Shown in pieces: positions 672 to 44,213 of a stretch of DNA of 55,767 bases (positions are counted from its first letter, which is position 1; every line of letters starts with the position of its first letter). A program made the translations under genes and the position numbers. The notes under the pieces were generated by a model that was not told the origin of the DNA, did not search any database, and worked only from the letters and a program-made list of their open reading frames with translations. The stretch is from a virus (lineage: Duplodnaviria > Caudoviricetes), in the IMG/VR virus record IMGVR_UViG_3300012943_000007, positions 1 through 55,767 of that record. One strand, given 5' to 3'.

Positions 672-820
672 AAGTGAAGATCGAACGGACGCCAATGACG
701 TTCGACGAATTGTGCGCTGATTTGAACGTCAAGCCTGATGAACGTGCTAAATTGGCGTTCTATCTGGCGGTATTGCGTGCGTTCCGAACATTCGAAAAGC
801 TAGGCCATGCTCCGGGGTGA
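668..820 (+). CDS. small hypothetical protein (50 aa, MKVKIERTPMTFDELC...)
   Basis: Read manually; fills the gap between 671 and terL with ATGA coupling. Confidence 0.5.
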   Translation: MKVKIERTPMTFDELCADLNVKPDERAKLAFYLAVLRAFRTFEKLGHAPG

Positions 821-2654
821 TTTATTCGAATGGATCGAGCCGCCTGCGCCTATCGAGCCGTTGCGGCCCGATGCGCTGAGTATTGCGCAATGGCGTGCGC
901 AAGGCGGTCCGGATTATAAGCGCATTCTGGCTTGGCGGATTAACGAAATCGACGCTATGCGCGCGAGCGTTAGAGCGGAAAACGAACGACGTTCCAAAAA
1001 CTTTCAATCCGGCCCGCAACCGACATTGCTCGATATGGCAAAGGCGTATTACGCCAAGCCTGAGAATGCCGGGCGGTTCATTATGGATTGGATGGATACT
1101 TACGATCCGCGCAAAAAGTCTATGCGATGGATGCCGTTCGTATTTTTCCAACGGCAAAACGAGTTCATCGATTTTCTAACTGAAATGTATCTGACCGACG
1201 AGAACGGGCTTGTCGAAAAAGCGCGTGATATGGGTCTGACATGGCTTTGCGTTGCGTGGTCCGTTTGGGCGTGGCTATTCGTTCCGGGTGTCGCAATCGG
1301 TTGGGGCTCGCGCAAGCAAGAGCTAGTCGACCGGCGCGGCGATTTCGACAGTATTTTTGAAAAGATTAGGCAAGTCGTTCAGCGTTTACCGCGTGAGTTC
1401 TGGCCGAAAGGGTTCGATCCGTCGAAACACGCGACGGAAATGAAGCTGATCAATCCTGAGAATGGCGCGTCGATCACTGGCGAAATTGGCGATAACATCG
1501 GTCGCGGCGGTCGAAAGACGATCTACTTTAAGGATGAAAGCGCCCATTACGAACATCCCGAGTTGGTTGAAGCGGCGCTAGGCGATAACACGAATTGCCA
1601 GATCGATATTAGCTCGGTCAACGGGCTTGGAAACGTGTTCCAGAGGCGCGCGGAAAGCGCAGAGCTTTGGACGCCGAATAGACCCGCGCCAATCTACTCC
1701 GGCGTGGTCCGAAAGTTTATTGTTGATTGGCGCGATCATCCTGAAAAAACACAAGAATGGTACGAACGGCGGAAAGCGCGAGCGGAAGCCGAAGGATTGC
1801 TCGCTAAATTCTTGCAGGAAGTGGAACGCGATTATAGCGGGTCGCTGTCTGGCGTAATCATCTTACGCGAATGGGTTGAAGCGGCGATTGACGCTCATTT
1901 GAAGCTTGTCGATTGGAAAGATAGTCGAGGCGTGCCGATTGATTGGCTTTCCGGAGGTTGGGCGGGCGGGCTCGATATCGCCGACAGTGACGACGGTGAT
2001 AGGAACGCGCTTGTCTATCGCAAGGGGATTGTTCTTTGCGATGCTGACGAATGGGGCGGCGCTCGCGATCCGGGGGTTACGACACGCAAAGCGATTGCGA
2101 CGTTGATCGCATTGGGTGAATATATAGAATGCTATTACGATAGCGTCGGAATGGGTTCGAACGTTAAGTCGGAATGGAACCGTCTAACAATCGATGATGA
2201 AACGGGCGGATTGCGTAAAGATGCACCGAAAGGTATCGAGCGCGTCCGGATGGTTGGATGGAATGCAGGCGATAGCGTTCAAAATCCATATTATCATTTG
2301 GTCGAGGATGACGATGAAACGCCGCTTAATCGTGAATTCTTTCAGAACATGAAGGCTCAAGCGTGGTGGTCGCTTAAAATGCGGTTCTATCGGACATGGC
2401 AAGCGGTCGTTCAAGGCTTGCGCTTCGATCCCGACAGCATGATCAGCATTCATTCCGGATTGCGCCTATTGGAACAGATCAAAAAAGAGCTATGCCAACC
2501 CGTCATGGTTCAAAGCGCGGGATCGTTAAAACAGATGGTCGATAAAAAGCCCGCTAATACCAAGTCGCCGAACGTTGCCGATGCAATCGTTATGTGTTAT
2601 TTCCCGGTCGACAATGGCGGCGCAACGGCGACAAGTGGCACTCATGGGACTTAG
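807..2654 (+). CDS. terL: terminase large subunit
   Basis: Walker A-like EKARDMGLTW, Walker B YFKDESAH, nuclease motifs GLDIAD and SPNVADA; precedes portal. Confidence 0.93.
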   Translation: MLRGDLFEWIEPPAPIEPLRPDALSIAQWRAQGGPDYKRILAWRINEIDAMRASVRAENERRSKNFQSGPQPTLLDMAKAYYAKPENAGRFIMDWMDTYDPRKKSMRWMPFVFFQRQNEFIDFLTEMYLTDENGLVEKARDMGLTWLCVAWSVWAWLFVPGVAIGWGSRKQELVDRRGDFDSIFEKIRQVVQRLPREFWPKGFDPSKHATEMKLINPENGASITGEIGDNIGRGGRKTIYFKDESAHYEHPELVEAALGDNTNCQIDISSVNGLGNVFQRRAESAELWTPNRPAPIYSGVVRKFIVDWRDHPEKTQEWYERRKARAEAEGLLAKFLQEVERDYSGSLSGVIILREWVEAAIDAHLKLVDWKDSRGVPIDWLSGGWAGGLDIADSDDGDRNALVYRKGIVLCDADEWGGARDPGVTTRKAIATLIALGEYIECYYDSVGMGSNVKSEWNRLTIDDETGGLRKDAPKGIERVRMVGWNAGDSVQNPYYHLVEDDDETPLNREFFQNMKAQAWWSLKMRFYRTWQAVVQGLRFDPDSMISIHSGLRLLEQIKKELCQPVMVQSAGSLKQMVDKKPANTKSPNVADAIVMCYFPVDNGGATATSGTHGT

Positions 2655-4206
2655 CAGACTGGCGCTAATGGCGGCATTCGACGGCGCAGCGGCGCCAACG
2701 CTGCTAGAGGATTTGGACAAGCCCGGCGCTGATAATTCAGTCATGCGCCCGTACTGGCAGCTAGTCGACGCCATTCTAGGCGGCGTCGAAACAATGCGGC
2801 TCGCAAAAGACATGACGTTGCCGCAATTGCCTGCCGAAGATGACGACGATTACAAATTTCGGGTGAACACTTCGAAGTTTACGAATGTGTTCGGTGATAT
2901 CATCGAAGATTTGTCGAGCCGTCCGTTCTCTGAGGAAGTCAAGGTTGAGGGCGAGAATACGCCCGCCGAAATCGAGGTGTTTTGCGACGACGTTGACGGC
3001 GCCGGAACGTCGCTGACGATGTTCGCAGCGGAACAGTTTTATAACGCCGTTGCGTACACTATCGATTGGACGTTCGTCGATTTCCCGAACGTTCCACCGA
3101 AATCCGATGGTACGGTTCGCACTCGCGAAGATGACAAACGCGACGGTAATCGCCCGTATTGGTCGCATGTTCGGGCGATCAACGTTCTAGAAGTTCGAAC
3201 CAAAATCATCAATGGTCGCGAAACGATCATTTATTTCCGTCTGTTCGAACCTGCGGCGAATGGGATCAAGGATCGCGTTCGTATCATGGAGCTAATCAAC
3301 GGCGTTGCCAGTTGGAAGCTTTACGAAAAGTCGGATCGTGCGTCGAATACCGCCAATGCGACGACATGGGTCGGCGTCGACGAAGGTATTTTTTCCATCG
3401 GCAGCATTCCGCTCTATCCGTTCGCAACGGGTCGCCGGAAGGGTCGGACTTGGCAGTTTCATTCGCCGATGAAGTCGGCGGCGGAATTGCAGGTTCAGCT
3501 ATTCCAAGATGAAAGCGCGCTGAAACATTCTAAGATCATGTCGGCGTTCGTAATGATCGCCGCGAACGGGGTGAAGCCTGAGAAAACCGGCGTCGGTAAC
3601 GCACAGACGATCAAGCCGCTTAAGACCGGTCCGGGTCGCGTTCTTTACGGCGGCGTTGACGGCAGCGGAACGGCAGGCACGTTCGAATTGCTAGAGCCGT
3701 CTGCGTCGACGATGGAGTTCCAAGCCAAAGACAACGAACGCACGATCAACCAATTGCGCGAGCTAGGACGCCAGCCGTTGACGGCGCAGTCTGGTAACCT
3801 CACGGTGATTACGACGACGGTTGCCGCGATGAAGGGCAACAGCGCTTGCCAGCAATGGGCGATCATCGAAGGTAAGGCGCTCGAAAGCGCGCTGGAAGCA
3901 ACCGCGCGTTGGTACGGTATCCAGAATTACAAACCGTCCGTTGAAGTGTTCCATGATTTCGACGTTGACGGCGAGGGCAAGGATATGACGCTTATTCTTG
4001 ACGCTCGAAAGAATGGCGATCTATCGCAGGGCACGCTTTGGCATGAAATGCGCCGTCGCGGCGTGTTGAGTGCTGAGTTCGATCCAGAAAATGAAAAGAA
4101 AGCTTTGTTGGACGAAACGCCCGACGAAACGGATATCGACGACGAAATAACCAAGCCCGGCGCGAACGTCGTTCCGATTAAACAGCCGGTGAAACCCCCT
4201 GTCTAA
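2644..4206 (+). CDS. portal protein (DUF4055-like)
   Basis: About 520 aa directly after terL; start set at ATG 2644 (MGLSRLALMAAFDG); acidic C-terminus. Confidence 0.85.
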   Translation: MGLSRLALMAAFDGAAAPTLLEDLDKPGADNSVMRPYWQLVDAILGGVETMRLAKDMTLPQLPAEDDDDYKFRVNTSKFTNVFGDIIEDLSSRPFSEEVKVEGENTPAEIEVFCDDVDGAGTSLTMFAAEQFYNAVAYTIDWTFVDFPNVPPKSDGTVRTREDDKRDGNRPYWSHVRAINVLEVRTKIINGRETIIYFRLFEPAANGIKDRVRIMELINGVASWKLYEKSDRASNTANATTWVGVDEGIFSIGSIPLYPFATGRRKGRTWQFHSPMKSAAELQVQLFQDESALKHSKIMSAFVMIAANGVKPEKTGVGNAQTIKPLKTGPGRVLYGGVDGSGTAGTFELLEPSASTMEFQAKDNERTINQLRELGRQPLTAQSGNLTVITTTVAAMKGNSACQQWAIIEGKALESALEATARWYGIQNYKPSVEVFHDFDVDGEGKDMTLILDARKNGDLSQGTLWHEMRRRGVLSAEFDPENEKKALLDETPDETDIDDEITKPGANVVPIKQPVKPPV

Positions 4207-4221: not shown

Positions 4222-5052
4222 ATGCACATTCGTAACTTGTTCGGAATTTCGCATGTCGCTCTCATGGCGGCGTTCGAAGGCGAGAACGTTCCGACGTTGG
4301 CGCAACAGCCGGTCCGCGACGGCAAGCTTGTGTTCATCAACGGCGACAAAGAGGAACTTGTTGACCCCGGTGAATATTGGACGGGTCGCAGCAAGATCAC
4401 GGCGCTGAACAGTGAAGCGGCGGGCCATAGGCGCGAGAAAGAAACGCTCGCCGAAAAGCTGAAACCGTATGAAGGGATCGACCCGGTGAAAGCGCGCGAA
4501 GCGCTCGGGATCGTCGAAAAGCTCGATCAGAAAAAGCTTTTGGACGCCGGGGAAGTCGACCGGGTGAAAGCGACTATCGAGGAAGGCTATAAGGGTCAGC
4601 TTACCGAAGCGCAGAAGCGCGGCGATACGCTGCAAGCCCGGCTGAACGAAAAGGTACTGACAGAAGCGTTCACTGGCTCGAAATGGGTCGACGACACGTT
4701 GGCGATCCCGAAAGATATCGTTCAATCAACGTTTGGTCGGTTCTTTACCGTCGACGACGCGACCGGCAATATCAGCGCCAAGGATCATACTGGTAATCCG
4801 ATCCTGTCGCGCGCCACGGAACGGCTCGGGCAACCGGCGCCATTCGAGGAAGCGCTAAAGGTGCTGGTTGAAGCCTATCCGAACAAAGACGCCATTATGA
4901 AGGGCAACGCCAATCGTGGCGGCGGCAACACTGGCGGCGGCGGTAATCCGGGCGGCGGCGCGCGGATCGTTCGGCGCGCTGATTTCGACAGTTGGTCGCC
5001 TGCCGAAAAGGCAAAGGCGGCGACTGATCCGAATATCAAGATCGTCGATTAA
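4222..5052 (+). CDS. capsid scaffolding protein
   Basis: Charged coiled-coil, Gly-rich linker, short C-terminal helix; lies between portal and coat. Confidence 0.8.
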   Translation: MHIRNLFGISHVALMAAFEGENVPTLAQQPVRDGKLVFINGDKEELVDPGEYWTGRSKITALNSEAAGHRREKETLAEKLKPYEGIDPVKAREALGIVEKLDQKKLLDAGEVDRVKATIEEGYKGQLTEAQKRGDTLQARLNEKVLTEAFTGSKWVDDTLAIPKDIVQSTFGRFFTVDDATGNISAKDHTGNPILSRATERLGQPAPFEEALKVLVEAYPNKDAIMKGNANRGGGNTGGGGNPGGGARIVRRADFDSWSPAEKAKAATDPNIKIVD

Positions 5053-5142: not shown

Positions 5143-5338
5143 CAGGACCGGCGAAATCGATCCGTCGATCATCGTCGAAAAGTTCGACCGTATATTGCGA
5201 TCCTAAACCGCGTTCCATACCGCGCGCCCATTCGATAGCGGCTTGTTCGTCTTTAGGTTGATGGATCGCAAGCGGTGTTTCGGTTCCGGACCAAGGGCGT
5301 TCATTCGAGTTGAAACGGACGCGAAGTTGATACGTCAT
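5123..5338 (-). CDS. hypothetical protein (island 1)
   Basis: Start ATG 5338 coupled to upstream stop. Confidence 0.55.
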   Translation of the reverse strand: MTYQLRVRFNSNERPWSGTETPLAIHQPKDEQAAIEWARGMERGLGSQYTVELFDDDRRIDFAGPENKRGG

Positions 5339-5604
5339 TCCGTTTCCTTTCTTCCGCCAGTTTCGAGGAACCATTTCCGAATGCCGACTTCCGCCATTGC
5401 CTTAGCGTCGTCGACCGACGTGTAATGGTTGTTCGCCGCGCTGATCGAAATGCCGGGCAGGTAGAAATTCACCTGATGCCAAACGGCTTCATTCTTGCGC
5501 AACAATGGTTGCGTGACGCTGGCGACGCGATAGCCGCCAACCTTGGCGGAATGGACGGCGGTCCCAAGGCGCGGAACCTCATGGCTCCAAAGGATCGGTT
5601 TCAT
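5335..5604 (-). CDS. hypothetical protein (island 1)
   Basis: Start ATG 5604 (MKPILW), ATGA coupling. Confidence 0.55.
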   Translation of the reverse strand: MKPILWSHEVPRLGTAVHSAKVGGYRVASVTQPLLRKNEAVWHQVNFYLPGISISAANNHYTSVDDAKAMAEVGIRKWFLETGGRKETE

Positions 5605-5695
5605 TGAACCCTCACAAGGCGGTTGAGAATGAGCGCGGCGAATAGGATCGCGCTCGGATAGGTTGCAAGATCGATAGCGGCGAACAGGGCGGTCA

Positions 5696-5914
5696 TTAGC
5701 GCGCTCGCACGAACAGCGGTTCGACAAGCATTTCGCGCCCGGTATCCGGGAATGAAATGCGAATGCGCTTGGTTGTAACCTTGATAACGGTCGCGTCGAA
5801 ATCTTTCCAGATCGCGCGGCGAGTTGATCCCGTGCGGATAAACCCCTGTTTGACATGAACGCGAACGGCGTCGCCGGGGTGAAACTGCGCTGCGTGCTGG
5901 CTGGTAATACCCAA
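5696..5914 (-). CDS. small beta-rich (SH3-like) hypothetical protein
   Basis: GGAGG SD before TTG; promoter just upstream. Confidence 0.6.
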   Translation of the reverse strand: MGITSQHAAQFHPGDAVRVHVKQGFIRTGSTRRAIWKDFDATVIKVTTKRIRISFPDTGREMLVEPLFVRAR

Positions 5915-5943
5915 TCAATCCTCCATCGGTTGAATACCGTCTG

Positions 5944-5971
5944 ATATAAGCGCGCTAATCAGCCGGGTCAA
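5944..5971 (-). promoter_or_regulatory. sigma70-type promoter TTGAC-N17-TTATAT
   Basis: Spacing counted; 5943-5971 is 26/29 nt identical to 34351-34379. Confidence 0.75.
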
Positions 5972-6192
5972 GTGGCTAAATGGAAAATCGCTCGATAATT
6001 TTTCAAATTCAGCATTCCGTTCAGCATTTCAGGAAACGGAATGATATCATCGATCACGTAACGTTCATGCCAGATCAGCACGCCGTCGTTCCGATCAGCT
6101 AGCAGGCGATCCGCGAGCGCTAGCTGATCTTCGGGGAATTGCATTGTCGCCCGATAGTCGGAATGTCGGACGAATAGAAATAGCCGTTTCAT
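5968..6192 (-). CDS. hypothetical protein
   Basis: ORF in coupled minus-strand run. Confidence 0.55.
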   Translation of the reverse strand: MKRLFLFVRHSDYRATMQFPEDQLALADRLLADRNDGVLIWHERYVIDDIIPFPEMLNGMLNLKNYRAIFHLAT

Positions 6193-6455
6193 TCGTCGTT
6201 ACAATCGTCGCAAAGGTTTTCGTCGGTATCGTTGTTTAGTTCCTCGGTTGAACAGTACCAACCGCAACCGTCGCAGCAAAAATACAGTTCGTCGCAGGCG
6301 GCGGCAAACTGCATACTTTTCGCTTCCTCTGCTGTTAGTGCAAGTTCCTCGCAAACGTTTTCGATGACGCGAACGTCGGGCGGATTTGCCGTTCCGATCA
6401 CTTGATCAGCGATGGTTTGTGCGGCTTGTTGAATTAGCTCGCTGCGCATGGTCAT
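6189..6455 (-). CDS. small Cys-rich (zinc-binding) protein
   Basis: CDGCGW...CDDC motif. Confidence 0.65.
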   Translation of the reverse strand: MTMRSELIQQAAQTIADQVIGTANPPDVRVIENVCEELALTAEEAKSMQFAAACDELYFCCDGCGWYCSTEELNNDTDENLCDDCNDE

Positions 6456-6688
6456 TCCGCCGCGACCAATGTCGGCAACGGCTTTTTAGCAGTCGGCGGG
6501 TTGATCAGGGTTTCGATTGTGTCGGTTCGGCGTCCGTATAGAACGCCGTTACGAAATGCAATCTCGCGCAGGGCGTTCACGCGTTTGATTGCGCCCGGTC
6601 CCCATTGACCATGAACATAGCCGATAGAGAAACCAATTCCGCCAGCGATTGCGGCGATAACAAAAACAAGAGCGGTATAAAAGAGCAT
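6452..6688 (-). CDS. small membrane protein
   Basis: N-terminal hydrophobic helix. Confidence 0.55.
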   Translation of the reverse strand: MLFYTALVFVIAAIAGGIGFSIGYVHGQWGPGAIKRVNALREIAFRNGVLYGRRTDTIETLINPPTAKKPLPTLVAAE

Positions 6689-6840: not shown

Positions 6841-6862
6841 TTCCAAATCAGAGGGCTATCCC

Positions 6863-8086
6863 ATGCGCAAGGCTTCCTTGCTCGCGTCGGTCGCGCTAAT
6901 CGGCGTTATCGGCGTCGCCCCGTCCTATGCGGCGGCGAACACTCTTACCGGGCTCATTCCCGACATTTACGCGGCGCTCGACGTTGTGTCGCGCGAACTG
7001 ATCGGCTTCATCCCGTCCGTCAATCGCAATACCGGCGCCGAACGTGCGGCAAAGGGCGAGGCGGTCAAATGGCCGGTTTCGCGCACCACTACGGCGACCG
7101 ATATCACGCCGTCCATGACGATCCCGAACCCTGCGGATCGAACGACTGATACTGCGTCGATCACGATCACCGAAGCGAAGTCGGCCCGGTTCGGCTATAC
7201 CGGCGAGGAACAGAAAGGGCTGAACAATTCCGTCGGCTATCTTTCGGTTCAGGCGCAGGAAATCGCGCAGGCGTTTCGTTCAATCGCGAACGAAGTCGAA
7301 CAGGATATCGCCGACGTGGCGCTCGTTCATGGCTCGCGCGCTTACGGCACGTCGGGAACGACGCCGTTCGCAACCGATCTTTCCGACGCGGCGAACATCA
7401 AGAAAATCCTTGATGATAACGGCGCCCCGTCCGGTGAACGTTCGCTGATCATCAACACTACGGCAGGCGTTAAGGTTCGCACTTTGACGCAGTTGACCAA
7501 GGTCAACGAGGCCGGAACGTCGATGACGCTGCGGGACGGCGAACTGCTTTCGATCTTCGGTCTGTCGATGAAAGAAAGCGCCGCCAACACGTCGCATACC
7601 AAGGGAACCGGCGCGTCGGCGACGACGAATAACGCGGGTTATGCGGTCGGCGCGACGACGATCACGCTTGCATCTGCGGGCACCGGGACGATTGTCGCGG
7701 GCGATGTGATCACCATTGCGGGCGATACGAACAAGTACGTCGTTCTTTCCGGCGACGCCGACGTTTCGAACGGCGGCACGATTACGATTGGCGCACCGGG
7801 TCTGCGTGTGGCAATCGCGGCGTCGGCGACGGCGATCACTGTGCTGAATTCGTTCAGTGCGTCGTTCGGTTTCTCGCGCAATGCGCTTGCGCTTGCGGCT
7901 CGCCCGCCTGCCGTTCCGGAAGGTGGCGATGCTGCCGTCGAAAGCATGTTGGTTACCGACGTGCGTTCGGGTATCACCTTTGATATCCGTCGTTACAACG
8001 GTTACCATATGTCGGAATACGAAGTTGGTCTGGCGTGGGGTGTCGCCGCGACCAAAGACGAGCATATCGCGACGCTGCTCGGCTAA
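6863..8086 (+). CDS. major capsid protein, P22 coat-like, with N-terminal leader
   Basis: ANTLTGLIPDIYAALDVVSRE start of fold, Thr/Ala-rich insertion domain, C-terminal GLAWGV; GAGGG SD before ATG 6863. Confidence 0.9.
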   Translation: MRKASLLASVALIGVIGVAPSYAAANTLTGLIPDIYAALDVVSRELIGFIPSVNRNTGAERAAKGEAVKWPVSRTTTATDITPSMTIPNPADRTTDTASITITEAKSARFGYTGEEQKGLNNSVGYLSVQAQEIAQAFRSIANEVEQDIADVALVHGSRAYGTSGTTPFATDLSDAANIKKILDDNGAPSGERSLIINTTAGVKVRTLTQLTKVNEAGTSMTLRDGELLSIFGLSMKESAANTSHTKGTGASATTNNAGYAVGATTITLASAGTGTIVAGDVITIAGDTNKYVVLSGDADVSNGGTITIGAPGLRVAIAASATAITVLNSFSASFGFSRNALALAARPPAVPEGGDAAVESMLVTDVRSGITFDIRRYNGYHMSEYEVGLAWGVAATKDEHIATLLG

Positions 8087-10666: not shown

Positions 10667-11218
10667 TTACGACTTGCGCCAGACGCGAACCTCTGCCTTG
10701 TCAGGATCGGTTTTCGGATCGACCGGCGACGCGAAGAACACGCGTTCCGGGCCGCGAGCGCGAACCGGCGTAGTAACGCCCGGCTGACCGGGAACCGGAA
10801 CGTCGATCATCTTCGGCGTACCGTCCGGGTTCGACAGATCGACAAGCTTATCGGGCTTTGCCCAACGCTTGTTGGCGCTGGCGACGGTCGAATTGACGTT
10901 TTTGAACGTCTTACCGACGACGCCGAAGCTTTCGCCGATTTCCATCTTTTCGAACGGATAGATCGACTTGCCGCCGCGCTTGCCGGACGACGGGCGCTTG
11001 TCCGGGATCGGAATTGCCTTGGTCAGCGAAGTGAACGGGGTGTCATTGCTAGCAGGGGCGGCAGCGGTTGCGGGCTGCGGGATGGAAGCGCCGCCGCCGG
11101 CAGGAACGGGAACAGGCGTGGGAGCGCCGCCAGTCTTACCGCCAGCGGCGGCGAAAAGCAGCGGCGACGCCGACAGAGCGGCGAGCGCAATCATAGAACG
11201 GAACTGACGGTGAGACAT
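10667..11218 (-). CDS. putative small DNA-binding protein with hydrophobic leader
   Basis: IPIP...RGGKSIYPFEKMEIGESF...VRVWR pattern seen in phage proteins; flanked by own promoter and terminator. Confidence 0.65.
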   Translation of the reverse strand: MSHRQFRSMIALAALSASPLLFAAAGGKTGGAPTPVPVPAGGGASIPQPATAAAPASNDTPFTSLTKAIPIPDKRPSSGKRGGKSIYPFEKMEIGESFGVVGKTFKNVNSTVASANKRWAKPDKLVDLSNPDGTPKMIDVPVPGQPGVTTPVRARGPERVFFASPVDPKTDPDKAEVRVWRKS

Positions 11219-14064: not shown

Positions 14065-14531
14065 AGCGGTTCCTGCTTTCCATTGACGGGTTGAGCGCTC
14101 GAAACAAGCCGCTGACCATGCCAGCCGAACGGCAGTCGGAACGCCGGGTCTAGAAAAACCCAAAGGTGATATTGGTTCGCCGTGTCGACTTCATCGGCGC
14201 GAGCCGGAAAGATTTGGACGGCTTCATATTCCGGCCCGCAAATTTCGTCTTTGATCCGCATGAAATCGCGATAGCCCGCCGCACTGATCGGCTCTTTATC
14301 GAGCCGCTTAATCGACAGGTGTCCGATATCGGGAAAGCCTGGCGCGCGAAGCTTGCGGCAATTCACCTGATACACGTCATTTCGAAAAATCATGTCGTTA
14401 TCAAGATCGTCGATTATCGCGGCGGCTTGCGCTTCTGTCATGGTCGGATCAGTGCGCAGGCAATCGGCTATGATTGCCGCCCGGCGTTCGGACGTAATCG
14501 GTTCTAGGGTGGCGGGCATTAGGGGTTTCAT
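14061..14531 (-). CDS. conserved phage protein
   Basis: HLSIKR...IKDEICG.E.EAVQIFP....VD.AN.YHLW pattern. Confidence 0.7.
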   Translation of the reverse strand: MKPLMPATLEPITSERRAAIIADCLRTDPTMTEAQAAAIIDDLDNDMIFRNDVYQVNCRKLRAPGFPDIGHLSIKRLDKEPISAAGYRDFMRIKDEICGPEYEAVQIFPARADEVDTANQYHLWVFLDPAFRLPFGWHGQRLVSSAQPVNGKQEPL

Positions 14532-15634
14532 TTCAGGGTCACCGGGAAGTTGTCAGGGATGATAGTTTCGAAAGTCTGGCTGATACGCTGTTCTAATGTT
14601 CCGTAAGTATTTTCGTTAAGGCGGTCAAGCATGAATGCGTTAACCGGAACTTCATGTTCGTCGCTGAATGCGTCCATTGGCGAACCATAAGACCCGCTGT
14701 TCATTGTGGTTAGATCGTCGCACGATGCGACCGTGGCAAAATAGAAACGCCGCAACATAGAAGGGTGACCAAGGCCGAACACAAGATCGTTTAGGTTCAG
14801 CGGATCGCCGGGCTGTTTGAGTGTGACGGCGTTGATCATGCTAACGTCCATGCGGCTCGAAATAGTCACAACGATTTCAGTTGAATAACCATTCTGTTCT
14901 AGCAGATCGGAAATTGCGCCGACACAAGCCGCGCGGATCGCGATTGTTTTCGGATTGATGTTTGCTGACATGCCAAGTTCGGTGAACAGTGTCACGATCT
15001 TTTTCGCAGGCATACGAACGCGCGCTTTCATATGAACCGGTGAACCCGCCAGCATCTTGCCGACGTTCACGCGCCCGCCAGCGACGCCGTAACGGCTTTC
15101 GCGAGCCGTGGCTTGTTCGCCGTTGATGAATTCGAGCGCCTGCTTTGCAGTGTCAACGCCTTCTTCCCAACCGTTGCGAGCGATGGAAACGGCGTGATCA
15201 AAATCGTCCGTACCAGTGAATTCATGGCGGTGTGCGCTAGTTCCCCATGCCGCGCCGCGACCGTTTTCGCCGTTGCCGTAAACCCGAACGGATTTGACGA
15301 AATCGACGTAAGCGGGAAGCGATGAAAAACCGGCGAATACCGTCGTCGGACGGAACGTTCCCAAATGGGTTTGGTCGTCGCCAATGAAGCGCGTTTTGAT
15401 TTCTTCGCTGGTAGTAACAACGGCAGCGGGACGGACGTTCTCGCGCGGTGCCGGGATCATTTTGTTGGGTTCTTTGCCGTCAAGCGTGACGACGCAACCG
15501 ATCAGATTGCGCACGGTATCGAGCGCCGGGGAATTGTCGGAAAGCTTCCAACCCTTGCGGTTGCCGTCCCAAATCGCGCCAAGGCGTTTCAGCGTTTCTT
15601 TGTGACCGAACGTTTTGCCAGAGATAAAAGCCAT
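14528..15634 (-). CDS. vWA-like partner of AAA+ ATPase
   Basis: Adjacent to MoxR-type ATPase; beta-strand plus degenerate MIDAS (TLFTELGMSANI), HPSMLRR. Confidence 0.6.
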   Translation of the reverse strand: MAFISGKTFGHKETLKRLGAIWDGNRKGWKLSDNSPALDTVRNLIGCVVTLDGKEPNKMIPAPRENVRPAAVVTTSEEIKTRFIGDDQTHLGTFRPTTVFAGFSSLPAYVDFVKSVRVYGNGENGRGAAWGTSAHRHEFTGTDDFDHAVSIARNGWEEGVDTAKQALEFINGEQATARESRYGVAGGRVNVGKMLAGSPVHMKARVRMPAKKIVTLFTELGMSANINPKTIAIRAACVGAISDLLEQNGYSTEIVVTISSRMDVSMINAVTLKQPGDPLNLNDLVFGLGHPSMLRRFYFATVASCDDLTTMNSGSYGSPMDAFSDEHEVPVNAFMLDRLNENTYGTLEQRISQTFETIIPDNFPVTLK

Positions 15635-15660
15635 TCATTCCTCCATTTCCGATCCGCCTT

Positions 15661-15688
15661 ATGTAAGGGCGGATCGGATCGTTGTCAA
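15661..15688 (-). promoter_or_regulatory. promoter TTGAC-N17-TTACAT overlapped by 11-bp inverted repeat
   Basis: tccgatccgcc 15648-15658 / ggcggatcgga 15668-15678. Confidence 0.6.
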
Positions 15689-15691
15689 CGG

Positions 15692-16837
15692 TCAGATGAT
15701 CTTTTTGCGGTCGCTTTCCGACATGCCTTTGAACAAATACATTTCCTCAACGTTCGCTTGGGAAATACCCGCCGCAAGAGCCTGCGAACCCATGATAATT
15801 GCGCGGGTCGAAACGACGTGGCGGATATTCTTTGCCCGGCATTCCATGCGAACATCGGTCACGCGGTCAAGCCAGAGTTCGTTTCCGCCGCTCAAAGCAA
15901 CTTCAAGATCGCGGTCGTAATCGATAGCGATCACGGCGAAACGATCCAGCGAAGCGGCGTCAAGCTGATTACGCCCGACATAGACGCGATCCGCGCCGTG
16001 ACCGTAAGTGTTGGCTGTGGCGACGATCCGGAAATTAGCATGGCGCAGCACCGGAACCGGCGTGTCGGGGAACGTCGCGAAACCGTTGGCAAGGGCGCTA
16101 TTGGCCGCGAGCAACGCGGCGGCGTCCCATGCGTCGATTTCGTCGGCAACCCATACGCCGCCATGCTCGAAAGCCTGCCGGAACGCGGTCGAATGATAAT
16201 TGCCCATACCGTCGACGAACCCCAACAATTCGTGAGTGTCGAACACGGTCGACGTGATATAGAGAGGCAGGTTCAGCGCGGTCGCGACAGTCGAGCAAAT
16301 CGACGTTTTGGACGCACCGGCAGGGCCGACCAACATAACCGGGTGCGCGAGCGATGCGACCCGGATAACCATTCCGGTTGACGCATGAACGACCCCTTCA
16401 ATTTTGGTCAAGCCAGCCGGGCCGGAAATTTCGAGCCGGGTCACCTTAACGGCAGGTTCGATCTTGCCGATTTCGTCGGCGACGATGGCGCGAACCTTGC
16501 TTTCGTCAACGATAGCTTCCGGATTGCCCATAAGCAGGCGCAGGGCGTTGGCGAACTGTTCAGCGGCGGTATTGGTCACCGGGGCGGGCGGCGTTGCAGC
16601 AGGGGCGCCGTAGTACGTCGGCGCGGGTTCCGAACGGGTTTGCCAAGCGGCGTAAGTGGCGTAAAGGTTCATAAGCTCGACGTTCGACATTTTGTAAACG
16701 TCGGCGGAAACATAACCCTTGGCGGTCGCCCATTTCCGAAGCAACGGACGGTTGGTTCCGTCGACGCGAATAAGTTCGCTTGCCGGGCCGATCATGCTTT
16801 CGGCTTCATTGACGGTCATGGAAGGGGTGCGGGCCAT
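15692..16837 (-). CDS. MoxR/CbbQ/CobS-like AAA+ ATPase
   Basis: Walker A GPAGASKT, Walker B VADEID, ATANT, LDAASLDRF, STR. Confidence 0.85.
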   Translation of the reverse strand: MARTPSMTVNEAESMIGPASELIRVDGTNRPLLRKWATAKGYVSADVYKMSNVELMNLYATYAAWQTRSEPAPTYYGAPAATPPAPVTNTAAEQFANALRLLMGNPEAIVDESKVRAIVADEIGKIEPAVKVTRLEISGPAGLTKIEGVVHASTGMVIRVASLAHPVMLVGPAGASKTSICSTVATALNLPLYITSTVFDTHELLGFVDGMGNYHSTAFRQAFEHGGVWVADEIDAWDAAALLAANSALANGFATFPDTPVPVLRHANFRIVATANTYGHGADRVYVGRNQLDAASLDRFAVIAIDYDRDLEVALSGGNELWLDRVTDVRMECRAKNIRHVVSTRAIIMGSQALAAGISQANVEEMYLFKGMSESDRKKII

Positions 16838-16869
16838 TTCGAAAACTCCGGTTTGAATTTCTTTCCGAT

Positions 16870-16897
16870 ATCTAGACCAATCCGACACGGCAATCAA
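16870..16897 (-). promoter_or_regulatory. promoter TTGAT-N17-CTAGAT
   Basis: Spacing counted; upstream of ATPase start. Confidence 0.5.
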
Positions 16898-16923
16898 CCC
16901 CCTAAATGGCGGAATAGAAAAGA

Positions 16924-17346
16924 ATGGTGAAAAAATTTTCTGTTCAACTCGACGAATGGGCCGCGAAATCGAAAAATCGAATGGTCGCGATCAACCGACA
17001 ATCTATTCAAGATACCGTCGACGCCGCGCAATTACCGGTTGCAAAGGGCGGTAATATGCGGGTCGATACCGGATTTATGCGCGCCAGTGGGCAAGCGTCC
17101 CATTCTGGAATGCCAACCGGGCCGGTCCGGGGCGATAGCGACGTTCCGAATTATTACGCCCCGGATAGCGCAGCGGTCGAAACGACGATTGCGACAACCG
17201 AGCTAGGTACGCCGTTCTTTTTTGGTTGGACGGCTGGATATGCCCGGTTCCGTGAATACAAAGATGCATTTTTGCGGCTCGCGGCGCAGCGTTGGCCGCA
17301 GACGGTCAGAGACAACGTTAGGAAAGCAAAGGAACGGTTCAAATGA
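16924..17346 (+). CDS. HK97 gp10-like tail completion protein
   Basis: MRVDTGFMRAS and YARFREY motifs. Confidence 0.75.
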   Translation: MVKKFSVQLDEWAAKSKNRMVAINRQSIQDTVDAAQLPVAKGGNMRVDTGFMRASGQASHSGMPTGPVRGDSDVPNYYAPDSAAVETTIATTELGTPFFFGWTAGYARFREYKDAFLRLAAQRWPQTVRDNVRKAKERFK

Positions 17347-17762
17347 CAAGCCAAGTGAAAATCAACTATCTGTTGCTCGATAAAGCTGAAACGCTGTTAT
17401 ACTCGCTCGGCTTTACCGGTTTGATCGACATGCCGGATAGAGCATTCACTGTTCCGGACGCGCCGACGGAATATTGCGAGGTTCGGATTTTTCCGAATAC
17501 GCCAGACGGTCCGTTATGGGGCGCCGAAGAAATTCACTTCGGCATTCTGCAAATCGCGTTGATCAGCTATGAACAAAAAGGGTCGATCAAACCGATGAAA
17601 ACTTGTGATGCGATCCGCGCCGGGTTCGTCAAGGGCACCGTTCTAGAAGCCGATGGAACCCGCGTCCGTATCCATCGCCCGCCCGGTGCATTGGCACTAA
17701 TTCAAGATGGACACAAATCGACTTATCCGGTATCCATCCCGTATCGAGCGACAGGCTCTTAA
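17343..17762 (+). CDS. tail terminator protein
   Basis: GILQI...G.G..F.KG...PVSIPYR pattern; precedes tail tube. Confidence 0.7.
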   Translation: MTSQVKINYLLLDKAETLLYSLGFTGLIDMPDRAFTVPDAPTEYCEVRIFPNTPDGPLWGAEEIHFGILQIALISYEQKGSIKPMKTCDAIRAGFVKGTVLEADGTRVRIHRPPGALALIQDGHKSTYPVSIPYRATGS

Positions 17763-17781
17763 CACCCAAAGGGGAACGGTT

Positions 17782-18267
17782 ATGAAGGGAATTAGCGCCG
17801 TCGCGCTTATGGCGGCAATGGCGAATGATGGCGTTATCGGCACGCATGAGGGCGGAACGCTTCATGTTTGTGCGACGCCAGCGACAACCGATCTTGACGC
17901 GGCGGGATTTGCCGCGCTGACGTGGGTTGCGGTCGGCAAGGTCGGTTCAGTCGGCGAATTCGGTATCGTTCAGAATATCGTCGATTACGACACTTGGGCC
18001 GGAACGACGCTCAAGGGCAAGGGCTCGAAACGTCCGGGTGATCCGGAAGTCGAATACGCCCGCGATGAAACCGATGCCGGGCAGGACGTATTGCGCACGG
18101 CTTGCGATCTTGCGACGGCGCACGCTGTCAAAGTGACCAAGCAGGATGGAACAATCTTCTATTCTCGCGCGCTGGTCGCTGGTCCGTCCATGCCGCAGGG
18201 TCGCGGCGAGGACGCCGACATTGAAGTTGTAACGCTCGGGCTTGTTCAGAAGCCCGTTCGCGTGTAA
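17782..18267 (+). CDS. major tail tube protein
   Basis: LTWVAVGKVGSVGEFG, KGKG, DAGQ..LR; start ATG 17782 with GGGGA SD. Confidence 0.85.
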   Translation: MKGISAVALMAAMANDGVIGTHEGGTLHVCATPATTDLDAAGFAALTWVAVGKVGSVGEFGIVQNIVDYDTWAGTTLKGKGSKRPGDPEVEYARDETDAGQDVLRTACDLATAHAVKVTKQDGTIFYSRALVAGPSMPQGRGEDADIEVVTLGLVQKPVRV

Positions 18268-18290
18268 TTCGCCGGTAGAACGGCGTTTTG

Positions 18291-18318
18291 AAAGGCGGGC
18301 AATCACGCCCGCCTTTTT
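18291..18318 (+). terminator. intrinsic terminator
   Basis: aaaggcgggc-aatcac-gcccgccttttt. Confidence 0.75.
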
Positions 18319-18341
18319 CGTATCGAAAGGAAACCCCTAAA

Positions 18342-18746
18342 TTGGCACGCGCTCCCATTAATACCGCTTCGAACGATCTTGCCGCGATCAGCGCTCATTC
18401 AATCAAGTATGCGGTTAAGCATCCGAAAACCGATGCTGAAACCGGCCTGATCCTTCATCTGCGTTGGTTCGGCGATGAAAAGGTGAAATCCGTTCAACGC
18501 GACATTACGAATAAGCAACTGAAACTTTCGCAACGTCGTAAGACGTTCACGGCGAAAGAACTGGAAGCGTCGACGGTCGATCAGCTTGTTGCTGCAATCG
18601 AGGGTTGGGAATGGACGAACGGCGCGACGTGGCACGGCGAAGCGCTCGACTTCAACGAACACAACGTTCGAAAGGTTCTGACCGAAGCGGCGTGGCTTAT
18701 GCGGCAGGTTGATGAAGCGTTGGCGAACGACGCGGATTTTTTCTAA
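18342..18746 (+). CDS. tail assembly chaperone (gpG-like)
   Basis: Between tube and tape measure; ends in slippery T TTT TTC TAA. Confidence 0.8.
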   Translation: MARAPINTASNDLAAISAHSIKYAVKHPKTDAETGLILHLRWFGDEKVKSVQRDITNKQLKLSQRRKTFTAKELEASTVDQLVAAIEGWEWTNGATWHGEALDFNEHNVRKVLTEAAWLMRQVDEALANDADFF

Positions 18747-19156
18747 GCCTAAACGCCGATCTCTGTTTTGCAGTGTCGATGTTCGTCCGGTATGACATGC
18801 CGGATGTTACGGGCGAAACTCGCGAGGAACGCAATAAGCGTTTCAAAATTCCAGAGGCGACCGTTGATTGGGACATTCCCGACGACGGTATGTATCTTTG
18901 GGGTTGGTATTGGCGAGTTTCCGCCCGAAAGAAACGTGTATCCGAAGGCGTCGCCGTCCCGCTAGAGTGGAACGATTTTCTAGCGTGGGCGGCGGCAACC
19001 GGGGAGATTGTAAAACCCTTCGAATATGATATTTTAGCGGATATGGACGACGCGTTTGTAACCGAGACCAACGCAGAGTTATCGCGGTCGCGGGCGATCC
19101 TTAAGGATCAGGCGGAAAAAGACGCCAAGGCGGCGGCTAAAAAGCGGGGCAAGTAA
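18737..19156 (+). CDS. tail assembly chaperone -1 frameshift extension (gpGT-like)
   Basis: The -1 frame is open from the slippery heptamer 18737-18743 into ORF 18773..19156. Confidence 0.75.
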   Translation, partial: FFLSLNADLCFAVSMFVRYDMPDVTGETREERNKRFKIPEATVDWDIPDDGMYLWGWYWRVSARKKRVSEGVAVPLEWNDFLAWAAATGEIVKPFEYDILADMDDAFVTETNAELSRSRAILKDQAEKDAKAAAKKRGK

Positions 19157-40481: not shown

Positions 40482-40589
40482 GGGATTGGATTTCCTTTCG
40501 GAGTGAAGCGGGACCGGTGTTCTAAAACAGCTTGACAAGAGACGCAAGCAAATTTTATCAGTTACTCAGTTTTAAGGATCGCGCGCCCC

Positions 40590-41195
40590 ATGTCAATCTC
40601 TATCCCTTGCGCCGTTTTTCAACGGCTCTCGCACTGCGCTTTTCGCCCGACAGACGTAACCGGAAATATCGCGCCGCGTCCCGCGCTAGCGTGCGTCCGG
40701 ATCGAAATCGAAAATCGGACGAAACTAGCAATCGCCGCGAACGGTCACATAATGGCGATTGAAAATCTCGGCGATACGGACGAACCCGACGCTATGTTCA
40801 ATATCGGGATTACGCCGACGTTGTTAGAGCGGTGCGGGCAAGAGGCACCTTATAACGGTGTGATTACCGTTGCGAACCTAGTCGCTAAAACGACGTTCGG
40901 CTTTACTGAAATGTCTATATCGTCGCAAGATTATGTCGACTGGCGCAAAGCGGTCCCGACGTTCCTTCCAAAGAAATCGCTCGGGGGTGTGATGTTCGAC
41001 GGCGAGCAAATCAACCGGCTTGTTAAATCGTCGCCGTCCGGGTTCATCGTTCTGCAACAGCATTTCGATAAATCGCGACCGGTGATCGCGCGAGATATCG
41101 CCGATCCAAATTGGCTTGGGGTGTTCATGGTGCAAGACCCTGAAACAGATACGCCCGCCGAACTGCCGAAATGGATCAGCCATGCGAGCGCTTAA
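40590..41195 (+). CDS. beta-clamp-like protein (partial fold)
   Basis: RPAL..V.IE...AIAANGHIM and YVDWRKAVP resemble DnaN central-domain motifs. Confidence 0.55.
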   Translation: MSISIPCAVFQRLSHCAFRPTDVTGNIAPRPALACVRIEIENRTKLAIAANGHIMAIENLGDTDEPDAMFNIGITPTLLERCGQEAPYNGVITVANLVAKTTFGFTEMSISSQDYVDWRKAVPTFLPKKSLGGVMFDGEQINRLVKSSPSGFIVLQQHFDKSRPVIARDIADPNWLGVFMVQDPETDTPAELPKWISHASA

Positions 41196-41607
41196 GCAGA
41201 CGGGACCGGATGACTGTTTTAGAACGGCAATCGCTTGCTTGCTTGATTGCGAGCGCCCGGACGACGTGCCGCATTTCATGGAGGATCGCGAAAATCTAGG
41301 CGACGCTTATTCGCGGTTGCGCAAGTGGCTCGCCGGTCGCGGTTTGGCTTATGCATTCTTCGGCGTTCATGGCGATATTGGATCGCCTGCCGACGCTCGC
41401 GAAGTCGTCGCGTTCAACAATCCCGATCTTTACTATGTGATGATTGGAACGAATTCACGCGGTGAAAATCACGCAACGGTCTGTTGCGGTCGGTATGAAA
41501 TCCATGATCCGGCATGGGCAGGATCGGGATTACAAGGGCCGGGAAACAACGGTAACGAACATTACGGCATTCTAGTTCTCGTTCCGCTTGGTCAGGTTTC
41601 GGATTGA
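41182..41607 (+). CDS. C39-like cysteine peptidase-fold protein
   Basis: Q....DC..TAIA.LL, HATVC, IHDP: candidate Q/C/H/D residues. Confidence 0.5.
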   Translation: MRALKQTGPDDCFRTAIACLLDCERPDDVPHFMEDRENLGDAYSRLRKWLAGRGLAYAFFGVHGDIGSPADAREVVAFNNPDLYYVMIGTNSRGENHATVCCGRYEIHDPAWAGSGLQGPGNNGNEHYGILVLVPLGQVSD

Positions 41608-43256
41608 TCACGCTTAGAGCCGATCAGGCGACACTTAAAAACAACGTCTATACCGCATGGCAAGAGCCGGGCGTTCGTAACGTGTTGGCGGTTCTGCCGA
41701 CTGGCGGCGGTAAGTCTGTTATCGCGTCTGATATCGTTGGCGACTTCACGCGGCTCAATACGAACAGCGCCGTCATTGCGCACCGGCAAGAATTGGTCGG
41801 TCAGCTATCTTTGCACGTCGGACGCGCGGCAGTGAAACATAGGATCATTGCGCCGCGTCCGGTGATCGGTTTTATAACGGCGTTACATCGCGAAGAATTC
41901 GGACGGTCGTTCATCGATCCGAACGCGCGAACTGCCGTCGTCGGCGTCGACACTCTCGTTAGTCGGAAAGATCAGTTAGCGCCGTGGTGCGCGCAAGTCG
42001 GTCATTGGATGATTGATGAAGCGCACCATGTTTTGCAAACGAACAAATGGGGGATCGCTGCGGCGATGTTCCCCAATGCGTTTGGGCTCGGAGTGACGGC
42101 GACGCCAGAGCGTGCGGACGGTCGAGGGCTCGGGCGTGATAACGACGGCGTATTTGATCGGATGGTTATCGGTCCGACGATGCGCGAGCTAATCGACGCT
42201 GGATATCTTACTGATTATTCGATTGTCGTTCCACAATCCGATTTCGACGTTTCGAACCTTAAGATCACGGACACGGGCGATTTCTCGCAAAAGCAAATGC
42301 GCGAGGAAGCCAAGCGGTCGCATATCGTCGGCGACGCTGTAGAACAGTATATCAAATTTGCGAATGGCAAGCTTTGTGTCGTCTTTGCGATTGACGTTGA
42401 AACGGCGCGCGAGACGGCAGAAGCGTTCAACGCGGCAGGGATTGCGGCGGTTTCGATATCCGCCAAAACAGACGATGCGGTTCGCGTCGAATATCTGCGC
42501 AGGTTCCGACGCGGTGAAATCCGCGTATTGGTCAACGTCGATCTATTCGGCGAGGGTTTCGACTTACCGGCGATTGAATGTGTGATTATGGCACGCCCTA
42601 CGGCGTCGCTCGCGGTCTATCTGCAACAGTTCGGGCGAGCCTTGCGAACCCTATCGGGCAAAACAATCGGATTGGTGATCGATTTAGTCTCGAATGTGAA
42701 GCGCCACGGCTTGCCGGATAAAACGCGGTTCTGGTCGCTGGATCGGCGCGACAAGCGAGCGCGTCGGATGCGCGATCCCGAAGATATTCCGGTTAAGACG
42801 TGTCGGAATGCGGCTTGCCTGCGATCCTATCCCGGCGAGCTTCGATCTTGCCCATACTGCGGATTTGTTCCGGTCCCGGCTGGCGGCGGTCGCAGTGTTC
42901 AGGAAGTCGACGGCGATTTGATGTTGCTCGATGCGAACGTTTTGAACGCCATGCGCAAGGCGGCGCAATTGGTTGATCCGGGTCAGATTGCAGCACGGCT
43001 TGCAGGCGGTCGATTGCCTAACGGCGCTGTTGTTGGTCAGGTGAACCGACAGATCGAGCGCATTGAAGCGCAGCGGCGGCTTAGCGATACAATTGCGCTT
43101 TGGGCTGGTTATCAGCGCTCACTAGGGCGCGAAGATAGCGAAATTCATCGGCGGTTCTATCACGGGACAGGTGGCGTTGACGTTGTTAGCGCGCTCGGGT
43201 TGCCGCGTGTCGATATGGACAAACTAGATGCAATGGTGCGCGAATGGCTGGCTTAG
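41604..43256 (+). CDS. SF2 DEAH helicase with zinc ribbon
   Basis: PTGGGKS, DEAHH, TATP, EGFD, QQFGRALR, C..C...CPYC. Confidence 0.93.
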   Translation: MITLRADQATLKNNVYTAWQEPGVRNVLAVLPTGGGKSVIASDIVGDFTRLNTNSAVIAHRQELVGQLSLHVGRAAVKHRIIAPRPVIGFITALHREEFGRSFIDPNARTAVVGVDTLVSRKDQLAPWCAQVGHWMIDEAHHVLQTNKWGIAAAMFPNAFGLGVTATPERADGRGLGRDNDGVFDRMVIGPTMRELIDAGYLTDYSIVVPQSDFDVSNLKITDTGDFSQKQMREEAKRSHIVGDAVEQYIKFANGKLCVVFAIDVETARETAEAFNAAGIAAVSISAKTDDAVRVEYLRRFRRGEIRVLVNVDLFGEGFDLPAIECVIMARPTASLAVYLQQFGRALRTLSGKTIGLVIDLVSNVKRHGLPDKTRFWSLDRRDKRARRMRDPEDIPVKTCRNAACLRSYPGELRSCPYCGFVPVPAGGGRSVQEVDGDLMLLDANVLNAMRKAAQLVDPGQIAARLAGGRLPNGAVVGQVNRQIERIEAQRRLSDTIALWAGYQRSLGREDSEIHRRFYHGTGGVDVVSALGLPRVDMDKLDAMVREWLA

Positions 43257-43522: not shown

Positions 43523-43911
43523 GCGAATACGAAAGCGAAGCACAAGCGTTGATCCGGGCCGATGCTGGCGCATTGGACGCGCCGTTGTGGAGGAACAATT
43601 CGGGGGCATTTCAACATAGCGTCGGGCGTTGGGTTCGGTTCGGGCTCGGGAACGATAGCAAGCAACTAAACGACGTGATGAAATCGAGCGATTTAATCGG
43701 GGTTACGCCGGTTCTGATCATGCCGAACATGATCGGTCGCGTCGTCGGCGTATTCACTGCTATCGAGTGCAAGCCGTCCGATTGGCACTTGACGCCGGGC
43801 GATCATCGTGGGCAAGCGCAACTGAACTATATCGAGCTAGTGCGGCGACATGGCGGATATGCCGGGTTCGCGCGTTCGGTCGACGAATATCGAAGGATCA
43901 TCGGGCGATGA
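43519..43911 (+). CDS. VRR-NUC nuclease
   Basis: WRNNSG, RFGL, SSDLIG, AIECK, AQ..Y...V...GG. Confidence 0.85.
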   Translation: MSEYESEAQALIRADAGALDAPLWRNNSGAFQHSVGRWVRFGLGNDSKQLNDVMKSSDLIGVTPVLIMPNMIGRVVGVFTAIECKPSDWHLTPGDHRGQAQLNYIELVRRHGGYAGFARSVDEYRRIIGR

Positions 43912-44213
43912 CAAAACGCAGCAAAGGCGACGGAACGCGAGCGCTGATCATAACGCAGGGTTTGAAGCTGTTGAAGCGCGGCGGGCTCGCGCGGATCACA
44001 ACGGCAGAGTTAATGCATGGGACCGGTCTAAGCGGTCCGGTGATCTTCTATCATTACCAAACACTCGATAAGCTTCGCGAGCGTGTCGCATTCGCCGCGA
44101 TCAAACGGGATGATAAGGTTGCTGTCGCCCGGCTGATCGTCGACCGACATAAGAGCGTGCGCGAATTTACTGCGGCGCAACGGGCGGAATATCTCGCAAC
44201 GCTGGCGGATTAA
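43908..44213 (+). CDS. TetR-like HTH protein
   Basis: IITQGLKL..RGG...IT..EL...TGLS...IFYHY. Confidence 0.7.
   Translation: MTKRSKGDGTRALIITQGLKLLKRGGLARITTAELMHGTGLSGPVIFYHYQTLDKLRERVAFAAIKRDDKVAVARLIVDRHKSVREFTAAQRAEYLATLAD

Follow-up and report, generated by a model that had tools for sequence, protein, structure and literature searches.

To our knowledge, there is only one well-studied case in which virion proteins are trimmed by a protease other than a prohead protease, that of phage 80alpha and the host enzyme Prp, and the purpose of that trimming is unclear. The internal proteins of phage T4 bear a capsid targeting sequence that is removed by the prohead protease gp21, and we know of no processing in ordinary members of the P22-type coat protein family phrog_283. 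The report on 80alpha describes capsid and scaffold proteins that lose 13-14 N-terminal residues, with host Prp cutting between F and A (PMC5744158). The same report describes the Prp cut motif as common to 80alpha virion proteins and ribosomal protein L27, and as present also on the phage 80 capsid protein and the phi13 major tail protein (PMC5744158). In 80alpha, it states, cleavage of the capsid protein is dispensable, and the scaffold leader is needed for assembly while its cleavage is dispensable (PMC5744158). Here, we analyzed a complete 55.8-kb phage genome with terminal repeats (IMG/VR record IMGVR_UViG_3300012943_000007, all 55,767 nucleotides; hereafter, the window), whose P22-type major capsid protein starts with a 24-residue N-terminal extension. 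Judging from its sequence, this extension is the capsid copy of a leader common to the portal, scaffold, major capsid and major tail proteins. We propose that the shared leader is removed in the cytoplasm, with a Cys/His protein of the phage as the most likely enzyme, and we assign a probability of about 0.55 to this reading as a whole.

Leaders on four virion proteins

The capsid open reading frame (ORF) begins with MRKASLLASVALIGVIGVAPSYAA, followed by ANTLTGLIP, and its translation confirms the layout given in the original prediction: MRK, a 15-residue hydrophobic run, APSYAA and then the start of the coat sequence. The profile of phrog_283 (major head protein) aligns to residues 25-407 at profile positions 2-383 of 385 (E 1.6e-91). 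Because this alignment begins at residue 25, the preceding 24 residues are extra to the family, and the capsid body (residues 25-407) is an ordinary P22-type member with a full-length profile match. In the AlphaFold2 (AF2) model of the capsid protein, residues 1-25 have a predicted local distance difference test score (pLDDT) below 50 and residues 1-20 have no secondary structure; the rest folds as expected (mean 75.5). The 24-residue segment that had originally been singled out ends at position 6934, and the cut that we predict lies slightly upstream, between Y22 (6926-6928) and A23 (6929-6931).

Relatives were said to start at M-ANTLT, and they do: an in-frame stop codon followed by M-(A/S)NTLT occurs in most of the 80 viral loci and in nearly all of the 80 prophage loci that we compared. 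Ten betaproteobacterial prophage loci (L097, L130, L136, L117, L124, L139, L128, L140, L143 and L159; the hosts of these loci are Caldimonas, Cupriavidus, Variovorax, Duganella, Janthinobacterium and Paraburkholderia) have long, dissimilar in-frame stretches ahead of ANTLT that might represent a fusion or a second type of N-terminal extension. The nearest cultured relatives of the window, Rhizobium phage vB_RglS_P106B and Sinorhizobium phage RHph_X2_24, both of the genus Rigallicvirus, have capsid proteins with 59 and 55% identity to the window's, respectively, and both proteins bear an equivalent extension. Presence of the segment in close homologues as part of the N-arm, together with its retention on the mature coat, had been named as speaking against the original prediction; the first half of this is what we find, since these two phages and further homologues carry the extension.

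The extension was also said to contain no alternative start codon. This needs one correction, as an in-frame TTG exists at 6878-6880 (codon 6); from 6881 to the ANTLT core, there is no ATG, GTG or TTG in frame. The TTG has no ribosome-binding site and its use would keep the hydrophobic run; therefore, the extension can still be taken to be translated. The reading frame is open upstream to 6605, and the P106B and RHph_X2_24 capsid genes start at the equivalent MRK without another in-frame start upstream. A mis-called start codon with an untranslated extension, in favor of which only this TTG can be cited, is extremely improbable in light of the good ribosome-binding site at ATG 6863, the absence of later start codons, the conserved MRK start and the many homologues with an extension.

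These homologues define what the leader family has in common. Of 7498 capsid homologues (E<=1e-20), we inspected the best 120: in 111, the core is preceded by 8 or more residues (median 24, range 11-60), and 9 begin at the core. The capsid leaders vary in length and sequence, and their ends are alike. An F, Y, H or W stands directly before the core (position -1) in 78 of the 111 leaders and at position -3 in 24 of them; the latter arrangement (AYAx-ANTLT) is that of the window and of P106B. The residue before the aromatic one (P2) is Ala in 78/111 and Gly in 15/111, and the junction reads [F/Y/H/W] then A/D/E in 102/111. Hydrophobicity is far more variable: the best 9-residue Kyte-Doolittle (KD) mean is at least 2.0 in 46 leaders, 1.5-2.0 in 21 and below 1.5 in 44, and some leaders have just 11-13 residues or are rich in Lys/Arg or highly charged. 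What these leaders conserve is a motif with an aromatic residue at its end rather than hydrophobicity in general, and the leader of the window is the hydrophobic extreme of a family whose constant trait is its end motif. One metagenome homologue (P0109) has a leader that starts with a twin-arginine-like RRHFLG, about 40 residues before the usual ...Y-DNTLT junction.

The same kind of leader precedes three further virion proteins of the window (Table 1). The portal, scaffold and major tail leaders share an ...ALMAA[F/M] ending, and a strict '...ALMAAF' pattern has only three matches in the six-frame translation of the whole 55.8 kb, namely the N-termini of these three proteins. The DNA encoding the leaders differs at synonymous sites; therefore, conservation acts on the protein and does not reflect a recent copy, and recent gene conversion between the leaders was ruled out by the same differences. 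The ATG of the major tail protein at 17782 is preceded by AGGGGA (17770-17775) and by the stop codon of the tail terminator (17760-17762). The true start of the portal protein may lie further upstream (ATG 2614 or 2581, TTG 2575), within the end of the terminase gene.

We examined 17 other leader-bearing genomes whole, including P106B and RHph_X2_24. Scaffold and capsid leaders are present in all 17, the tail-protein leader in all but one (G162) and the portal leader in several; P106B and RHph_X2_24 have leaders on all four proteins. Across these relatives, the pattern is a short, mostly hydrophobic leader that ends in a small residue and F/Y and is followed by A, D, E or N. In each of the four proteins, the leader ends where the leaderless version of the protein begins. 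A leaderless member of the group, G156, has a tail protein starting M-ANTNAASK, a capsid protein starting M-ANTLT, a scaffold starting MKTWK and a portal without a leader, and neither the capsid protein nor the scaffold of Acinetobacter phage qsb1 has a leader. Leaders are also alike within a genome, with a likeness score of 7.37; shuffling of genomes gives 5.62 +/- 0.58, and a score of 7.37 is attained in 10 of 5000 shuffles. For example, every one of the four leaders in G201 has Gly at P2, and leaders of G192 end in FPVAF, FPVAF and FPGAF. We hold it highly probable that the shared leader is functional.

A candidate leader peptidase

The virion module of the leader-bearing genomes is fully syntenic with that of leaderless G156, and a comparison of the two revealed no leader-specific gene in this module. 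Among the ORFs of the window, we found no member of a prohead protease family, with weak partial hits on the Mu-F-like head protein only. Twenty genes of the window recur in 15 or more of the 17 other leader-bearing genomes, and G156 has 19 of these. The sole core gene that G156 lacks encodes a 141-residue Cys/His protein, P0126, which is flanked by an ORF at 40590..41195 and a helicase gene at 41604..43256. We consider it the best current candidate for the processing enzyme.

Of the 17 other leader-bearing genomes, 16 have the P0126 gene, and these are all of the informative ones (16 of 16). The miss in G157 is uninformative because the ends of this linear contig fall inside the flanking helicase gene and a gene similar to that of single-stranded DNA-binding protein, which leaves the locus unassembled. 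The gene order in leader-bearing genomes is always neighbor gene, peptidase, helicase; in G156, the two neighbors of the peptidase lie 220 bp apart. In near-complete leaderless genomes with this capsid family, the peptidase was found in 0/5 and 0/6, with a single weak and partial match among 20. Starting instead from contigs of at least 40 kb that bear the peptidase, we found this capsid family in 10 of 41, and 9 of these 10 have the leader. In a quick tree of capsid cores, the G156 lineage falls inside a clade of 14 leader-bearing rows (Shimodaira-Hasegawa-like approximate likelihood ratio test, SH-aLRT, 98 for the clade). Because the lineage is nested among leader-bearing relatives, its leaderless state looks like a loss. 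A TetR-like gene (43767..44213) also matched the presence and absence of the peptidase in five genomes, and was dropped as it occurs in only 8/17 leader-bearing genomes.

The predicted structure of P0126 resembles that of known leader peptidases. Its AF2 model is confident (pLDDT 90.9, predicted template modeling score 0.86). In a structure search of 48,161 chains, the top four matches are C39 double-glycine leader peptidase domains (ComA with a Z-score of 8.9; PCAT1 with 8.8 and 8.2; LahT with 8.2), superimposed with a root mean square deviation of 2.9-4.1 A over 109-121 residues, and the next matches are other papain-like proteases. Foldseek ranks the same C39 domains (probability 0.90-0.99, E 0.02-0.07), and the ESM Atlas yields five C39 clusters at a template modeling score of 0.64. 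No substitution of D11, C12 or H97 occurs in any of 55 diverse family members (0/55). All orthologues of the group (17/17) retain the Cys motif, and an H...[H/Y][D/N]P motif is also seen in them, G161 included. Cys12, His97 and Asp109 are the putative catalytic residues. A single hhalign alignment paired the Cys and HDP motifs of P0126 with the Cys and DP motifs of C39 domains. A search of PDB sequences with P0126 returned nothing relevant, a word-based homologue search found only 2 relatives, and a complex prediction from the peptidase alignment and capsid residues 1-45 scored 0.00, which counts neither for nor against the pairing.

C39 peptidases remove N-terminal leaders of 15-30 residues. 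ComA, PCAT1 and LahT are the best structural matches of P0126 and share with it the order Cys...His...Asp and a size of about 140 residues, and the modeled fold of P0126 is predicted to be C39 leader-peptidase-like. In contrast to these enzymes, P0126 stands alone, without fusion to an ABC exporter, and its putative substrates are large cytoplasmic virion proteins. The leader junction here is a small residue and F/Y rather than Gly-Gly, and the sequence and profile comparisons with C39 domains gave no significant match.

Relatives of the candidate outside the group occur in varied surroundings. In Xanthomonas phage Mallos, the homologue is the C-terminal part of a 223-residue protein (gp15; L184 6690-7361) encoded between the DNA ligase and portal genes. 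The homologous gene of phage AXL3 also adjoins a DNA ligase gene, and phage MW202621 has a peptidase homologue as well.

Weighing the readings

The processing that we propose would run as follows. A leader would consist of Met, usually a basic residue, 8-25 mostly hydrophobic residues and an end motif of a small residue and F/Y, followed by Ala, Asp, Glu or Asn. It would be cut in the cytoplasm just past the aromatic residue, in the window between Y22 and A23, so that the predicted mature N-terminus would differ from that of leaderless relatives by at most 2 residues (AAANTLT in the window versus ANTLT). The enzyme would be the phage's own Cys/His protein encoded at 41182..41607, and the leader might be, as a guess, a temporary block or guide for assembly or folding. 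We regard cleavage of the leader as likely, and we put the chance that the phage protein does the cutting at about even. With odds short of even, we tentatively envisage a self-contained maturation system, in which a stand-alone C39-like cysteine peptidase encoded among replication genes would act on a co-evolving hydrophobic leader carried by four polymerizing virion proteins. The leader could then keep these proteins soluble, unassembled, or associated with a chaperone or the membrane until it is trimmed, and Sec-like leaders, for example that of the window, might briefly engage the host targeting machinery.

Several observations weigh against a dedicated phage enzyme, or against the strength with which it can be proposed. 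The co-distribution of leader and peptidase is largely that of one clade, with one gain and one loss as independent events, and the nesting of G156 rests on two branches at SH-aLRT 85 in the quick tree only. The peptidase belongs to a large family, with 6527 representatives at E<=0.001, and homologues with 31-38% identity occur in the leaderless phages Me-ZS1, AXL3 and Mallos. Me-ZS1 combines this capsid family with a peptidase homologue and no leaders, provirus G230 has a peptidase homologue and a leaderless capsid protein, and 31 of the 41 peptidase-bearing contigs of at least 40 kb have another capsid family. Homologues in leaderless phages mean that the peptidase family has another or a broader job; the leader link, if real, would be specific to this phage group. 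Within the genome, the peptidase gene sits in the replication arm, apart from the virion module. As for the fold, Z-scores of 8-9 are near background for the structure search, neither Pfam (PF03412 and PF13529 included) nor NCBIfam matched any of the 55 family members (0/55 each), and hhalign against 11 C39 domains from alphaproteobacterial genomes gave a non-significant probability of 2.3%. Moreover, cleavage by C39 enzymes takes place behind Gly-Gly rather than behind an aromatic residue. The likeness of leaders within a genome may partly reflect amino-acid composition (G+C 43-55%), and cleavage itself, its position, its enzyme and the purpose of the leader are all inferred.

The original prediction read the capsid extension as an export-like Sec signal, and the leader of the window, taken alone, invites such a reading. 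It has the three-part layout of a signal peptide, with a basic n-region (R2, K3), an h-region with a best 9-residue KD mean of 2.93 and a 16-residue uncharged run, and small residues at -3 and -1 of possible A-x-A-like cut sites (S21/A23 in S21-Y22-A23, or A23/A25 in A23-A24-A25). Furthermore, 46 of the 111 homologous leaders reach a KD mean of 2.0, many junctions can be read as A-x-A sites, and the twin-arginine-like start of P0109 would suit a Tat (twin-arginine translocation) signal. However, an export role is unlikely because 44 of 111 capsid leaders, about two in five, are too polar for a Sec h-region, and some are too short or too charged. Sec signals have no use for an aromatic residue such as the conserved one near the junction; a signal peptidase site at some scaffold junctions of relatives (...PRAF then ES) would have Pro at -3 and Arg at -2; and leaders co-vary within genomes, unlike Sec signal peptides. 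The cargo also differs, as portal, scaffold, capsid and tail tube proteins act in the cytoplasm, where they must meet DNA and the terminase. A working Sec or Tat signal that targets these proteins to the inner membrane or exports them, and is cut by signal peptidase I, is thus very unlikely. On the same evidence, two of the roles first suggested for the extension, membrane-tethered prohead assembly and masking of the coat from immune sensors, find no support; the third, a cleaved propeptide related to a shared leader, fits a leader common to the portal, scaffold and major tail proteins.

Two further accounts keep the leader in the cytoplasm and dispense with a phage enzyme, with processing, or with both. 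A host cytoplasmic protease could remove the leader, as Prp does on 80alpha, with the phage Cys/His protein having an unrelated job. The 80alpha precedent itself, whose enzyme belongs to the host (PMC5744158), speaks for such a protease, as do the homologues in leaderless phages and the position of the candidate gene among replication genes. We nonetheless consider it unlikely. Prp (PF04327) was found in 0/5 alphaproteobacterial genomes and in 0/151 genomes of the order that holds Phyllobacterium, in a search that did detect it in control genomes (3 of 14 named genomes, those of Bacillus subtilis, Thermotoga maritima and Lactococcus lactis), and it has no match among the ORFs of the window. 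A host protease would also leave unexplained why the peptidase gene, alone among the core genes, was lost along with the leaders in G156, and why leaders have genome-specific variants such as the Gly at P2 of G201. Alternatively, the leader may never be removed and may stay on the mature proteins as a tag for assembly or chaperone binding, or as an added part of the N-arm. The 80alpha report offers a parallel in its scaffold leader, needed for assembly but with dispensable cleavage (PMC5744158), and removal here is itself a prediction. Retention is nevertheless quite unlikely: the leader ends exactly at the start of the leaderless relatives in four unrelated proteins, its junction motif resembles a processing site, and AF2 gives it no structure. 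Several hundred hydrophobic peptides would presumably have to be accommodated in each capsid and in each tail.

Genome context and comparison with known systems

The functions of window genes were assigned by PHROG annotation, and the features discussed here are collected in Table 1. Other virion genes of the window encode connectors, a Mu-F-like head protein, a tail terminator and a tape measure protein, and the replication arm includes DNA polymerase, helicase and primase genes.

Table 1. Leaders, their carrier proteins and the candidate peptidase in the window
Feature	Position	Strand	Basis or remark
Large terminase	807..2654		PHROG
Portal	about 2644..4206		phrog_145; match from residue 50 of a long ORF
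Portal leader MGLSRLALMAAF, then DGAAAP	2644..2679	+	
Scaffold	4222..5052		phrog_784/phrog_206, head scaffolding protein
Scaffold leader MHIRNLFGISHVALMAAF, then EGENVP	4222..4275	+	
Shine-Dalgarno-like AGAGGG	6850..6855	+	7 nt 5' of ATG 6863; sequence reading
P22-type major capsid protein	6863..8086	+	phrog_283
Capsid leader M1-Y22, MRKASLLASVALIGVIGVAPSY	6863..6928	+	translation; outside phrog_283; junction motif; AF2 pLDDT <50
Predicted mature P22-type (phrog_283) capsid protein, with stop codon	6929..8086	+	
Major tail protein	17782..18267		phrog_158
Major-tail-protein leader MKGISAVALMAAM, then ANDG	17782..17820	+	
Candidate leader peptidase P0126, 141 residues	41182..41607	+	phrog_5845; no Pfam or NCBIfam family

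Some genes of the window interrupt the arrangement of the virion module. Four small ORFs on the reverse strand (5335-6688) separate the scaffold gene from the capsid gene, a pair that most relatives have side by side; among the products of the four are a Cys-rich protein of 88 residues (6189..6455, phrog_2855) and a membrane-like protein of 78 residues (6452..6688). The four were found in 0/17 of the other leader-bearing genomes, and P106B and RHph_X2_24 likewise have reverse-strand genes between scaffold and capsid. Also on the reverse strand, a DUF7192 protein and an AAA_5/MoxR-like ATPase (phrog_249) are encoded within the virion module at 14528-16897, with counterparts in only 8/17 related genomes, and a DUF7303 protein with a signal-peptide-like N-terminus is encoded between connector genes at 10667-11218 (7/17 relatives have it). 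In the early region, a reverse-strand ORF of 111 residues (50377-50712) has a twin-arginine-like start (RRAFLLGLG...AVVRA) and a phage tail collar domain (PF07484, E 2e-5), and is possibly an exported collar-domain protein. Among the related genomes, the DNA polymerase gene of G158 (16755-19289) matches as two pieces, separated by about 530 bp, and has a single internal TGA, and the helicase genes of G156 (39883-42519), G159 and G201 match as two pieces about 1 kb apart. These split genes may hold inteins, introns or homing endonucleases.

Literature searches, which did not cover the original P106B paper, found no account of these leaders or of this peptidase family. If the proposed reading is true, the group would have a maturation system of a kind that has not been described for tailed phages, and, if it holds, the cultured phages P106B and RHph_X2_24 would make the role of such leaders directly testable. 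Programs that predict signal peptides are likely to label these capsid, tail and portal proteins as secreted by mistake. For phrog_5845, an unannotated phage family with more than 6000 representatives, the C39-like model is a first structural and functional hypothesis.

Compared to the described systems, the locus shares its capsid body and separate scaffold with the P22-type coat proteins of phrog_283, and differs from their ordinary members, which start at M-ANTLT. With the capsid targeting sequence of T4, it shares an N-terminal tag on several virion proteins, which in our case is predicted to be cleavable. The T4 tag, however, serves to bring cargo into the prohead core, where it is cut, whereas here the tail tube protein is also tagged and no prohead protease family was found in the window. 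The likeness to 80alpha and Prp is closer: both have a short N-terminal leader common to non-homologous virion proteins (capsid and scaffold, and the tail protein in phi13), a junction of an aromatic residue then Ala (here as a motif), a protease other than a prohead protease (here a candidate), and large self-assembling carriers (PMC5744158). The 80alpha system differs in relying on the essential Prp of its host and in having a leader that copies L27 (PMC5744158). Here, the leader is hydrophobic and signal-like, the portal is tagged as well, and the candidate enzyme is C39-like and encoded by the phage. We view the shared leader, which is probably removable, as a variation on the 80alpha/Prp theme among phages that infect Gram-negative bacteria; if this is true, it would be a second and independent case, with four substrates, a different motif and a candidate enzyme carried by the phage itself.

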